A stretch of DNA of 64,000 nt from an uncultured Acidobacteriota bacterium (lineage in GTDB: Bacteria > Acidobacteriota > Terriglobia > Acidiferrales > UBA7541): NCBI GenBank assembly GCA_963760285.1, contig CAVXCI010000001.1, forward strand, positions 2,067,289 to 2,131,288, written 5' to 3'. The notes under the pieces were generated by a model. The model saw only the letters and a program-made list of their open reading frames with translations, made no database searches and was not told where the DNA came from. The translations under genes and the position numbers were made by a program. This document shows positions 25,095 to 32,289 of the stretch, one piece after another (position 1 is the stretch's first letter; each line of letters begins with the position of its first letter).

Positions 25095-26536
25095 ATGTCC
25101 GACCAAAAACTTCCTACCCGTTCCGAGGATTTTTCGGAATGGTACAACCAGATTGTGTTGCGCGCGGAGATGGCCGACTACGCTCCGGTGCGCGGCTGCA
25201 TGATCGTGCGCCCGTACGGTTGGGCGCTGTGGGAAAACATCACGGCTGCGCTGGATCAGCGCTTCAAGGCCACCGGCCACGTCAATGCCGCGTTTCCGCT
25301 GCTGATTCCGCGCAGCTTCATTGACAAGGAGAAGTCCCACGTCGAGGGATTTTCGCCCGAGCTGGCCGTCGTCACGCATCGGCGGCGGCGAAAAGCTGGA
25401 AGAGCCGCTGGTGATTCGTCCGACGTCGGAGACGATTATCGGCCACGCCTACGCCAAATGGATTCAGTCCTAGCGCGATCTGCCGGTGCTGATCAATCAG
25501 TGGAACAGCGTGGTGCGCTGGGAATTGCGCACCAAACTTTTTCTGCGCACGCTGGAATTTTTCTGGCAGGAGGGCCACACGGCCCACGCCACCTTCGAAG
25601 AAGCCGAAGCCGAAACGCGCCAGATGCTGGACATCTATACCGACTTTGCCGCAGAACGAAGCCGCCGTGCCCGTGATTCCCGGCCGAAAATCAGACTCCG
25701 AGCGCTTCGCCGGCGCCGAGCCACTTACTCCATCGAAGCCATGATGGGCGACGGCAAGGCGCTGCAGGCCGGCACTTCGCACAATCTGGGCCAGAATTTC
25801 GCCAAGGCGTTCGAGATCCGCTATCTCGACAAGAACGGCGTGCTGCAGCATTGCTGGACGACTTCGTGGGGGCTTTCCACGCGCTTCATCGGCGCCATCA
25901 TCATGGTGCATGGCGACGATCAGGGATTGATCCTGCCGCCGCGCCTCGCGCCGTTTCAGGTGGTCATCGTTCCCATTTTCAAGACGGACGAAGAAAAGGC
26001 GCTGGTGATGGAGGCCGCGACAAGAATTCGCGCGGAACTCGTCGAAGCAGATATCCGCGTGAAAGTGGACGAGCGCGAAGGGTTCAGCCCCGGCTTCAAA
26101 TTCAATGACTGGGAAATGCGCGGCGTTCCGCTGCGCATGGAAATGGGGCCGAAGGACGTGGCCAAGGGCAGCGTGGTGCTGGCGCGCCGCGACCGGCCCG
26201 GCAAGGAAGGGAAGACCTTCGTCCCGCAGCAGGGCATCGCCGCGGCCGTGGCGCGAAATGCTGCGCGACATTCAGAAGGCGCTCTTCGACCGCGCGCTGG
26301 CTTTCCGCGAATCGCGCACCCAGGAGCCCGCGGATTACGCCGCGTTCAACGGCCGTCGAAGCAGGGATTCGCCCGCGCTCACTGGTGCGGCAATGCCGAC
26401 TGCGAGGAGCAAAATCAAGGAAGAGACCAAGGCCACGCTGCGTTGCATTCCGCTGGAGCAACCCGGCAAGCCCGGCAAATGTATTTTTTGCGGCCAGGCT
26501 TCGACGGAACAGGCGATTTTCGCCAGGGCCTACTGA
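25095..26536 (+). pseudogene. proS: Prolyl-tRNA synthetase, archaeal/eukaryotic type, disrupted by at least 6 frameshifts and one in-frame TAG
   Basis: Protein-level reading across three frames reconstitutes [22 protein letters not shown]...PELAVVTH|[47 protein letters not shown]...AGTSHNLGQNFAKAFEI...KCIFCGQASTEQAIFARAY. Breaks lie near 25380, 25471 (TAG in the conserved IQSYRDLP), 25660, 25715, 26255, 26355 and 26425. Confidence 0.8.
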
Positions 26537-26660
26537 GCCGCCACTTTTCATCCACAGACAAACGTTCCATCCGGCCGCAAAATGCGTCTAAACTAGGTAG
26601 TTGGATTCCGCGCGCTCGCCGTCGGGCGTGCGGGATTTTTGCGCAGTCCTCGGAGGTTTT

Positions 26661-30154: not shown

Positions 30155-31554
30155 ATGGCCCCGCGAATCCTTCGCTGGTTGTTGCTGGGTTTCCTGCTGG
30201 GTGTACCGGCATTCGCCCAGTCGCCGCCTGTTCCGTCTTCATCGCGCGTTTTGGAAATTGATATCCGTGGAGAGATTGAGCCGGTCCTCGCCGAATACGT
30301 GGTCCAGTCCGTCGATTCCGCCAGTCCCGCCGATTACAGCCTCATCCTGATCACCCTGGACACGCCCGGTGGGCTGGACAGCGCCATGCGCAAAATCATC
30401 AGAGCATCATCCATTCCCGGGTTCCCGTGGCGACATACGTCTATCCCTCGGGTTCGCGCGCGGCTTCGGCGGGATTTTTCATATTGATGTCGGGTGACGT
30501 GGCCGCCATGGCTCCCGGAACGGATACCGGCGCGGCATCGCCGCTGCTGGTTGTGGGCGGACGCGCCATTCAGATTGACGAAACCCTGCGCAACAAAATC
30601 GTCAACGAAGCTTCGGCCTATCTGCGCAGCATCACCACCAAGCGCGGCCGCAATCCCGCATTGGCCGAAGAGGCGGTGACCAAAGCCACAGCGTTCAGCG
30701 ACAGCGAAGCGCTTTCCGGCAAGCTGATTGACCTCAGCGCTACTTCGCCGCAGGACCTGTTCGCCAAACTGAATGGCCGCGTCATCCATCGCTTCGACGG
30801 TTCCACGGTGACTCTCGCGCTGGCGAACCCCACAATCGAGGTCCGCGAAATGACCGCGCGGCAAAAATTTCTCTCGCGCATCGTCCAGCCGGACGTATTC
30901 TTTGTTCTGCTGATTGTCGGCGTGCTGGGACTTTACGCCGAGTTCACTCATCCCGGCATGTTTGCGCCGGGCGTCATCGGCGTCATTTGTCTGGTGCTGG
31001 CCTTTTTGCCATGCACCTGCTGCCCGTGAACTTGACCGGGCTGCTGTTGCTGATTCTGGCGCTGATGTTATTCGGGCTGGAGGCGAAATTTCCCAGCCAC
31101 GGAGTGTTGGGAGTGGGAGGCGCGGTGGCCATGGTGCTCGGTGCGTTGATGCTGGTTCGCTCGCCGTTGACGGGCATGGGCGTGAGTCCCGGCACGGCCA
31201 TCGGAATCACGATTCCTGTTGCCGTGCTGGTGGTGATTTTAATGCGTCTGGTTTTGCGTTCGCGCGGCTGGAAGCAGATCCACCGGGCGGGAGCAGCTCG
31301 TCGGCGAAATCGGCGAAGTGGCCGAATCGATTGAGGCCCCGGAATGGTGCTGGTGCACGGCGAATTGTGGCGGCCGTTTCACGCAGAGCCTGCCGCGTGG
31401 CGCGCGCGTGCGCGTCCGTAAAGTGAATGGGTTGACGGTCTCCGTGGAACCAACGGGAGCGGGCCCGGCGCCCGCTCCTGTGAGTCTGATATTTTCGTCT
31501 CTAAGAGGAATTGCGAAGAGGAGAGAACGATGGATTTCTTCAATGCCGTGGTGA
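30155..31554 (+). pseudogene. NfeD-family membrane-bound ClpP-class serine protease, fragmented by about 5 frameshifts
   Basis: Segments in three frames: signal peptide plus ClpP-like fold (IDIRGEIEPVLAEYVVQSV...LDTPGGLDSAMRKII | PVATYVYPSGSRAASAGFFILMSGD...), a TM region (FAMHLLPVNLTGLLLLILALMLFGLEAKF...) and a C-terminal OB-fold (LVGEIGEVAESIEAPEG|MVLVHGELWR|...LPRGARVRVRKVNGLTVSVEP). Breaks near 30415, 31005, 31265, 31345 and 31385. Confidence 0.7.
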
Positions 31555-32289
31555 TCGGGGCGGTGCTGCTGTTCCTGATTTGGTTCGTCAATTCCGTCTA
31601 CGTGATCAAGGAGTGGGAGCGCGGCGTGGTCCTGCGCCTGGGCAGAATGCTGCCGCAGCCCAAACCGCCGGCTTTGCCTGGTGTTCTGGCCCATTGACAA
31701 GCTGACAAAACTTTCGCTGCGCGTTGAGGCGCTGGACGTGCCTCACAGGACGTGATCACCAAGGACAATGTCTCCGCGAAGGTGAACGCGGTGTGTTATT
31801 TCCGCGTGGTGGAGGCCAACCTTGCTCTTTCGCAGGTGCAGAATTATCTTTACGCCACCTCCCAACTGGCGCAGACGAATTTGCGCAGCGTGCTGGGTCA
31901 ATTTGAACTGGACGAGATTTTATCGGATCGCGAAAAGGTAAACGCCAAGCTGCAATTAATCCTTGACCAGGATACCGAGCCCTGGGGTATCAAGGTAACG
32001 AAGGTGGAAGTCAAACAGGTTGATATTCCGGAAAATATGCAGCGCGCCATCGCCCGCCAGGCGGAGGCCGAACGCGAGCGCCGGGCCAAAATTATTCATG
32101 CGGATGGAGAAATTCAAGCCTCCGCGAAGCTGGCGGAGGCCGCCAATATCATGGAGGCCGCGCCGGTCTCAATCCAGTTGCGCTATTTGCAGACGTTGAC
32201 GGAAATCGGCGTGGAAAAAAATACCACGGTTATTTTTCCGTGCCCTTGATTTGCTCACTCACTGGCTGAAGAGAAAGGAAGGGAAATAA
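31530..32289 (+). pseudogene. SPFH/band-7 (stomatin-like) protein, the usual NfeD partner, with about 3 frameshifts
   Basis: MDFFNAVVIGAVLLFLIWFVNSVYVIKEWERGVVLRLGR...|[24 protein letters not shown]|[27 protein letters not shown]...[16 protein letters not shown]...TVIFP|[14 protein letters not shown]. Breaks near 31660, 31742 (cc to c) and 32235. Confidence 0.7.

Follow-up and report, generated by a model that had tools for sequence, protein, structure and literature searches.

Clustered single-base indels in four neighbouring genes of a soil Acidobacteriota contig: very probably a local consensus failure of long-read assembly, not gene decay

Genome assemblies made from Nanopore reads alone can contain consensus errors in which single-base indels fragment the gene calls while the encoded protein is conserved (IDEEL test; Sereika et al. 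2022, PMC9262707; PMC12313526), and this effect varies with depth and with microdiversity. The long-read metagenome-assembled genomes (MAGs) of Microflora Danica (MFD) derive from Nanopore reads alone, with Flye --meta as the assembler and one Medaka round for polishing, and Nanopore-associated errors at lower coverage are described by the MFD authors (PMC12313526). A near-finished consensus from R10.4 data requires about 40x (PMC9262707), and MAG recovery is degraded by microdiversity in such data (PMC12313526, PMC9262707). Disrupted genes are also known from reductive evolution, such as in Mycobacterium leprae, Rickettsia and recent symbionts. Mira, Ochman and Moran are said to have reported in 2001 that pseudogenes gain far more substitutions than indels and show a broad range of deletion sizes. 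Moreover, a change of frame in a housekeeping gene can be programmed, as in the +1 frameshift of prfB by which RF2 autoregulates its synthesis.

Here we describe four disrupted genes in a 64-kb window, the whole stretch of DNA that was analysed, which has a GC content of 60 % and in which Rfam and tRNA scans found no RNA genes. Between positions 25095 and 32289, the genes proS, a class A PBP gene, nfeD and a stomatin gene are disrupted by 23 indel events in total and by one in-frame TAG. The frame breaks were seen by three-frame translation and by frameshift-aware protein-to-DNA alignment to the orthologues of locus L003, as well as in DNA alignments to 13-15 relatives and by blastn against contigs of the same population; a codon-usage frame scan of the window places all within-gene frame switches between 25.1 and 32.2 kb. 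All 23 indels fall inside ~5.6 kb, compared to ~57 kb of coding sequence in total, and this clustering is far beyond chance. Exactly 1 nt is gained or lost in 22 of them, the largest is a single loss of 2 nt, and there are no other multi-base deletions. The lesions fall into three patches (25.37-26.41, 28.26-28.53 and 30.40-32.25 kb) with 1.6 kb of clean PBP sequence between them, so that one block of low coverage does not account for everything. A preliminary description had reported about 16 disruptions in one seven-kb stretch of four genes with clean neighbours; the disruption of the four genes and their clean surroundings are borne out here, while the number was too low and the stretch is in fact interrupted.

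The proS gene (25095-26536, plus strand) encodes an archaeal/eukaryotic-type ProRS, an essential enzyme, with a ProRS-C_1 domain; its homologues have 479 aa and match Pfam PF00587, PF03129 and PF09180. Its frame is broken by seven indel events, namely insertions of one base at 25377, 25653, 26255, ~26367 and 26410, a deletion of one base at 25719 and one of two bases at ~26348-26351, which amounts to a net gain of 2 nt (1442 nt versus 1440 nt in 13 of 13 references). In addition, a TAG at 25471-25473 (plus strand) takes the place of the Tyr codon of the IQSYRDLP motif, in agreement with the preliminary description, which had listed at least six indels and this stop; of 120 ProRS homologues, 116 have Y in this column and 4 have W. 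After repair of the frame, the protein shows 90 % identity to its best homologues in protein searches and retains all 259 of the 259 columns that are invariant in the 120 closest homologues, where real ProRS homologues in a leave-one-out control violate 0.28 such columns on average and 3 at most. A metagenome scan with the repaired ProRS gave 86 % identity as the best value among the matches listed. Protein and metagenome searches found no comparator of the same species for the greater part of proS or for the PBP gene, and neither a second proS nor a second class A PBP gene is present within the 64-kb window.

The class A PBP gene (26667-29223, plus strand), encoding transglycosylase and transpeptidase, probably starts with TTG at 26667, with GGAGG at 26652, and forms one continuous ORF of ~840-870 aa in relatives. 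It carries two single-base deletions, as had been noted before, of which the one at ~28258 shortens CC to C (ATCCAT to ATCAT) rather than a run of four C as previously stated, and the one at ~28527 probably shortens TTTT to TTT. A further N-terminal frameshift called by dynamic programming at 26659 was rejected as an alignment artefact that arises from the divergence of the N-terminus and from the choice of start codon. For the C-terminal half, the best protein matches reach only 66-73 % identity. The nfeD gene (30155-31489, plus strand), encoding an NfeD1b-type membrane protease, contains nine single-base indels by blastn against contigs L001, L002 and L083, all of which encode an intact NfeD of 445 aa; the deletions lie at 30399, 30569, 31002, 31334, 31372 and 31382 and the insertions at 30561, 31279 and 31482. 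The stomatin/Band_7 gene (31530-32289, plus strand) carries five single-base deletions (31667, 31672, 31743, 32240 and 32245) relative to L083, which encodes an intact stomatin of 254 aa. The earlier counts of about five indels in nfeD and about three in the stomatin gene were thus underestimates.

The surroundings of these genes are intact. The TPR-repeat gene (29245-30051, plus strand) is an undamaged island between the patches, as had been proposed; two independent metagenome contigs encode exactly the same protein, and 29142-30120 shows no nucleotide difference to L001. Upstream, rpiB (24297-24893, minus strand; Pfam LacAB_rpiB) marks a clean left flank, with its exact protein on contig L084 and no difference to this contig over 23960-25100, and divergence begins at 25112, inside proS. 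Downstream, the SPOR-domain gene and lnt (32289-34580, plus strand; Pfam) mark the clean right flank; the SPOR protein is identical on L083, and 32275-34430 differs by ~10 substitutions (~0.5 %) and no indel. Full-length Pfam matches were obtained for the dcw genes, ftsA/Z, glyA, rpiB, SPOR, lnt, prfB, metK and ahcY as well as for tldD/pmbA, glgA, purA, moeA, moaC, zwf and ackA, so that the earlier view of clean dcw/glyA genes upstream and SPOR/lnt genes downstream stands, and all identifiable neighbours in the other ~57 kb are intact. An apparent frameshifted cluster at 46.5-50.9 kb, where minus-strand ORFs overlap, was resolved by a coding-potential scan and Pfam into separate genes; this region includes a plus-strand GDPD gene at 47943-49097.

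Taken at face value, the lesions could be read as genuine and very recent pseudogenisation, in which ProRS, class A PBP, NfeD and stomatin were lost by many small indels and the cell survives through paralogues, a host or a partner. The lesions are unambiguous in the sequence, they are limited to four genes with the TPR gene between them spared, and the edges of the divergent segments lie near gene boundaries (divergence runs from 25112, 17 nt after the start of proS, to 32274, close to the stop codon of the stomatin gene). However, the substitutions in the broken genes relative to same-population short-read contigs comprise 58 synonymous and 16 non-synonymous changes (8:2 in the N-terminus of proS, 30:12 in nfeD and 20:2 in stomatin), the test covering the first 195 nt of proS, nfeD and stomatin, and codon position 3 holds 60 of the 74 substitutions overall and 21 of the 22 in stomatin. 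This ratio is indicative of strong purifying selection on these alleles and is the signature of functional genes. None of the 259 invariant ProRS residues is changed, and neither relaxed selection nor loss of conserved residues was found in the repaired genes. Natural pseudogenes also differ in their indel spectrum from the almost exclusively single-base indels seen here, and to produce two dozen indels with no corresponding surplus of random substitutions, a mutator confined to indels would be required. In agreement with this, albeit weakly, the truncated products (25095-25676, 30155-30487 and 31530-31697) have no exact record in independent assemblies; the source genome's own gene calls are absent as well. 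Pseudogenisation is therefore regarded as very improbable. Were the lesions real, a burst of single-base indels would have inactivated ProRS, PBP and NfeD-stomatin within a very short time, through an indel-specific mutator or a defect of repair that acted locally on recombined segments, with survival by paralogues or metabolic dependence, a course of events that we consider scarcely credible.

The sequencing technology of related genomes points in the same direction. The gene order rpiB-proS-PBP-TPR-nfeD-stomatin-SPOR-lnt is conserved and intact in relatives. When 80 MAG loci of related Acidobacteriota are compared, frame-split versions of these genes turn up in 9 of the 43 loci from long-read assemblies and in 0 of the 37 others (Fisher p = 0.003). 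MFD MAGs make up 41 of the 43 long-read loci and all nine frame-split ones. The proS gene is split in two of these nine (L017 and L028, Nanopore MAGs of different species), and similar damage to proS is seen in no short-read MAG, which speaks against pseudogenisation. The window itself is drawn from a contig of more than 1 Mb, as is typical of long-read assembly, and we infer that its source genome was sequenced with long reads. Furthermore, two independent short-read metagenomes (Logan ERR10755941 and JGI 3300086623) encode identical TPR, SPOR and RpiB proteins beside intact nfeD and stomatin genes. These same-population contigs represent different alleles (3-5 % divergent), so that intactness is shown in sister strains and not in the strain of the window. 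Judged from these sequence comparisons, the lesions very probably arose where the consensus of a long-read metagenome assembly failed locally, and the source organism, a soil bacterium of the Acidobacteriota (Ca. Acidiferrales/Terriglobia group), most likely has all four genes intact. Of the two alternatives offered by the preliminary description, the evidence thus favours the localised low-quality assembly segment, and genuine decay is contradicted by the signature of selection, the retained invariant residues, the prevalence of single-base indels and the association with sequencing technology.

The distribution of the lesions suggests how such a failure might arise. The covered flanks are 99.5-100 % identical to the population contigs and free of frame-disrupting indels, and the indels are confined to segments in which the allele of the window diverges by 3-5 %. 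The error patches thus probably sit at strain-variable segments, and the proximate cause may be low depth or strain mixture. In a long-read-only metagenome assembled with Flye and one Medaka round, as in the project behind most of the closest relatives, segments common to all strains would reach full depth and yield a clean consensus, and strain-variable segments would have either few reads that agree or a mixed pile-up, so that polishing would fail there. The error rate of the patches, with single-base indels and at least one substitution, is roughly 0.5-1 % per base, which would correspond to one or a few raw long reads. Across nfeD-stomatin, ~3.3 % substitutions and ~0.7 % indels were found relative to the population contigs, the indels reaching ~0.9 % over 31065-32250. 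Four indel pairs in nfeD-stomatin are separated by no more than 10 nt (5-10 nt in the window; P = 0.003 for random placement), and such compound single-base pairs look like local miscalls. The proS gene is insertion-rich (5 insertions, 2 deletions) and nfeD-stomatin is deletion-rich (3 insertions, 11 deletions). A methylation motif as the sole cause, considered as several deletions abut GGCC or GTGCC, was rejected by inspection, since these motifs must abound in the undamaged 57 kb as well.

A variant of the artefact explanation, which differs in the proximate cause, holds that two strains or species were co-assembled and that the patch consensus is their chimera, i.e., a collapsed bubble, and that the indels stem from polishing of a mixed pile-up and not from low depth. 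The restriction of indels to the divergent segments would agree with this, as would the effect of microdiversity described above, and the short-read contigs break off inside the region (L084 at 25289, L002 at 30767 and L001 at 31703), which is what strain bubbles would produce. However, substitution differences between haplotypes alone create no indels, and the mismatches are evenly spread and fall mostly on third codon positions, as expected of one coherent allele. We regard the chimera as quite possible, though less probable than not.

The sequence contexts of the lesions bear on the type of error and on a further explanation. The majority of the 23 indels occur within runs of one or two bases, and only the one at ~28527 falls in a probable four-base run, so that a concentration in homopolymers, the classic R9-type signature, was not found at the lesion contexts. 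This departure from the classic Nanopore signature counts against an artefact, and the earlier argument from homopolymer-length changes is right only in a weak form; random read error at low depth fits the contexts better than a systematic error in homopolymers does. Likewise, no lesion context shows the long homopolymer or short tandem repeat of phase-variable genes. Programmed recoding or phase variation, in which frameshifting or transcriptional slippage bypasses the breaks or the breaks switch the genes on and off, could be considered as a true programmed prfB frameshift is present in the window (38091-38097) and recoding thus exists in the organism. However, there are five to nine breaks per gene in three of the genes and two in the PBP gene, the break sites lack a slippery heptamer, a long repeat tract or any common motif, no break is conserved in any relative, where the orthologues are continuous ORFs, and a stop codon takes the place of a conserved Tyr. 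This reading is already contradicted and its probability is negligible.

The finding is ordinary and chiefly cautionary, as it does not describe a biological feature. Annotation pipelines would label the four genes as pseudogenes or split ORFs and thereby wrongly imply that an essential tRNA synthetase and a peptidoglycan synthase are missing; such miscalls would lower the completeness estimate and bias what is inferred about the metabolism of an uncultured lineage of Acidobacteriota. Consensus errors can be separated from decay without reads by the ratio of synonymous to non-synonymous substitutions relative to same-population contigs, by invariant residues after repair, by the length distribution of the indels and by comparing long-read with short-read MAGs of relatives. 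The results also suggest that, in long-read MAGs, patches of errors are markers of strain-variable segments.

Among the known systems, the locus resembles the consensus errors of Nanopore-only assemblies most directly: single-base indels fragment the gene calls with the protein conserved, and sister MAGs assembled with Flye and one Medaka round carry the same damage, whereas the errors of the window lie mostly outside long homopolymers and in three short patches instead of contig-wide. It shares with the pseudogenes of reductive evolution the adjacent genes with multiple frame disruptions and a premature stop, but differs from these in that selection is unrelaxed, the flanks are pristine, an essential single-copy aminoacyl-tRNA synthetase is affected and multi-base deletions are restricted to the one 2-nt loss. 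With the programmed frameshift of prfB it has in common a frame change in a housekeeping gene, in the same window; prfB, however, uses a single site with a conserved CTT TGA C and an upstream GGAG, while the 23 lesions lack such a motif and are not conserved in relatives.

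The coding signal of proS, the class A PBP gene, nfeD and the stomatin gene switches frame repeatedly across 25095–32289 in three-frame translation. Mapping the breaks by frameshift-aware protein-to-DNA alignment against the orthologues of L003, the best related genome locus, and by nucleotide alignments against 13–15 relatives and same-population metagenome contigs yielded 23 indel events, together with a single nonsense codon, in the four genes; the frame breaks of the preliminary description are real features of the sequence, and their number exceeds the approximately 16 estimated there. 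proS (25095–26536) carries seven indel events (+1 at 25377, +1 at 25653, −1 at 25719, +1 at 26255, −2 at ~26348–26351, +1 at ~26367, and +1 at 26410), those near 26350 and 26367 being placed by the FK.AVE.GFA block conserved across all homologues, and with a net gain of 2 nt it measures 1442 nt compared to 1440 in all references. A TAG lies at 25471–25473, where homologues have Tyr (116/120) or Trp (4/120). The at least six indels plus TAG reported earlier for proS were thus recovered, as were the two single-base deletions in the class A PBP gene (probable start 26667, end 29223), mapped to ~28258 (ATCCAT to ATCAT) and ~28527. nfeD (30155–31489) contains nine single-base indels and the stomatin gene (31530–32289) five single-base deletions.

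The gene order in the window (GC ~60%) runs from the dcw cluster over ftsA, ftsZ, a JAB-domain gene, glyA, rpiB, proS, class A PBP, TPR, nfeD, stomatin, SPOR to lnt and onwards. A codon-usage frame scan of the window confines within-gene frame switches to 25.1–32.2 kb, a clustering well beyond chance expectation. In agreement with the initial observation that the neighbours are intact, all identifiable genes in the remaining ~57 kb show full-length Pfam matches and the TPR gene (29245–30051) is unbroken. A search with the N-terminal half of the PBP, in which each GTDB species was represented by one genome, gave 80 loci, almost all from uncultured Acidobacteriota (Ca. Acidiferrales/Acidoferrales, Terriglobia; best 69% identity), more than half of them 'MFDxxxxx.bin' MAGs of the Microflora Danica (MFD) long-read project. 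The order proS-PBP-TPR-nfeD-stomatin-SPOR-lnt is kept in relatives with continuous ORFs (~480, 840–870, 275–330, 445–480, 254, 210–240, and 510 aa), so the copies in the window occupy the ancestral syntenic position, which rules out a decaying duplicate.

In related genomes the damage tracks sequencing technology. When six L003 proteins were compared by tblastn to all 80 loci, a gene was split across frames in 9/43 long-read MAG loci vs. 0/37 others, i.e., MEGAHIT, SPAdes or scaffold-named loci (Fisher p = 0.003); MFD MAGs account for 9/9 split loci and 41/43 long-read loci. proS itself is split in two MFD MAGs, each a different species, with two shifts in L017 (MFD09286.bin.1.138, 7725–9163) and, in L028 (MFD05513.bin.2.62, 7805–17606), two in proS, as many as 15 in nfeD and three in stomatin, together with a split lnt. 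Split nfeD, SPOR or lnt genes were also seen in L004, L012, L020, L023, L027, L054, and L059, orthologous loci in other long-read MAGs of related species, and the protein-search matches include several truncated PBP fragments on contigs of hundreds of kb. The MFD long-read catalogue is Nanopore-only, assembled with Flye --meta --nano-hq and one Medaka round, and its authors describe Nanopore-associated errors at lower MAG coverage, as well as an influence of microdiversity (PMC12313526). The same group reported that near-finished consensus from R10.4 takes roughly 40-fold coverage and that gene calls are broken into pieces by indels (PMC9262707). The contig carrying the window exceeds 1 Mb, which fits a long-read assembly.

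Exact-protein look-up with the intact TPR, SPOR, and RpiB proteins identified short contigs in two independent short-read metagenomes (Logan ERR10755941 and JGI 3300086623), on which the identical proteins are encoded beside NfeD (445 aa) and stomatin (254 aa), both intact. Compared to them, 23960–25100 (glyA end, rpiB, intergenic) and 29142–30120 (TPR) show 0 differences and 32275–34430 (SPOR, lnt) ~0.5% substitutions with 0 indels, whereas proS from 25112 onward shows 5.5% and nfeD-stomatin (30268–32274) 3.3% substitutions, the indels coinciding with exactly the latter segment. Over 23960–35400 the four contigs L001, L002, L083, and L084 thereby reveal a gene-scale identity mosaic with the proS and nfeD-stomatin differences at third codon positions, which suggests that recombination has acted, or that alleles are strain-specific, precisely where the damage lies. 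Synonymous and non-synonymous differences number 8 and 2 in the proS N-terminus, 30 and 12 in nfeD, and 20 and 2 in stomatin (21/22 at codon position 3), the pattern of functional alleles. Separately, the lnt C-terminus (34442–34542) differs from L083 by ~20 substitutions in 100 nt, along with an insertion and a deletion that compensate each other (34536, 34541), while the ORF stays open; it represents a hypervariable tail or, alternatively, a fourth error patch of small size.

As the rest of proS has no same-species comparator, residue conservation was used instead. Drift long enough for seven indels and a stop should leave several-fold more random substitutions, mostly non-synonymous, going by established bacterial pseudogene spectra. 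The repaired ProRS shows none of this excess: it retains 259/259 columns invariant in its 120 closest homologues (85–90% identical), while real homologues, left out one at a time, violate an average of 0.28 such columns. Exactly 1 nt is affected in 22/23 indel events, a spectrum unnatural for decay. Four indel pairs in nfeD-stomatin are spaced 5–10 nt (P = 0.003, random placement), and non-synonymous differences tend to adjoin indels (4/13 vs. 5/50 for synonymous, p = 0.08), both of which fit local compound miscalls. Recent pseudogenisation of the four genes, the decay considered in the preliminary description, is contradicted by the signs of selection, by the preserved invariant residues and the essentiality of ProRS, by the kinds of indel seen and by the link to sequencing technology, and we regard it as very improbable.

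The lesions are truly present in the sequence, but these tests favour errors in the consensus over a biological cause. The indel rate within patches (~0.5–1%) is comparable to raw long-read error, independent assemblies agree at 99.5–100% with the flanks that they cover (two stretches exactly), and the patches coincide with strain-divergent alleles. Most economically, the patches would be backed by very few concordant reads (a collapsed bubble's minor-strain branch) or by a pile-up of mixed reads. Polishing would then fail there, and segments common to all strains would reach full depth. The proposal of a low-quality assembly segment thus holds in substance; homopolymer slippage, however, is not the dominant kind of error, most indels lying outside long homopolymers. 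Further misfits with the classic picture are that proS is rich in insertions and nfeD-stomatin in deletions, and that 1.6 kb of the PBP gene is clean, which implies several small patches instead of a single block.

Elsewhere in the window, a low-GC stretch (21000–22300; 0.505 vs. ~0.61) between the JAB-domain gene (20334–21017) and glyA, whose ORFs 21461–21973 (+) and 22265–22903 (−) have no Pfam match, may be acquired DNA. A low-GC island (56000–58000; 0.49–0.51) encoding an HTH_3/Cro-C1-type regulator (56530–57306) is inserted in a molybdenum-cofactor cluster between moaC (55343–56014) and a MoCF_biosynth gene (57718–58284). A lone SIR2-like gene (36820–37887, −) in a slightly low-GC stretch, flanked by prfB and a gene for a DM9-repeat protein, is possibly a stand-alone defence gene (weak Pfam SIR2_2 match; top PADLOC SIR2 match E = 2e-8).

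The damage at the four genes is most likely not a biological feature. Its use lies in alerting annotators to such patches and in providing a way to recognise them that needs no reads. Programmed recoding or phase variation as the cause of the frame breaks is excluded, because three of the four genes carry 5–9 breaks each and the PBP gene two, at sites that lack slippery or repeat context and are not conserved in relatives. A genuine recoding site, unlike these artefactual shifts, is found in prfB (RF2; 38022–39183, +), where the ATG at 38022 is followed by a frame of 24 codons ending in CTT, then TGA C, forming the canonical CTT TGA C site of programmed +1 frameshifting (38091–38097) with GGAG 9–12 nt upstream, and where the downstream frame, which encodes PCRF and RF-1 domains, extends to 39183.
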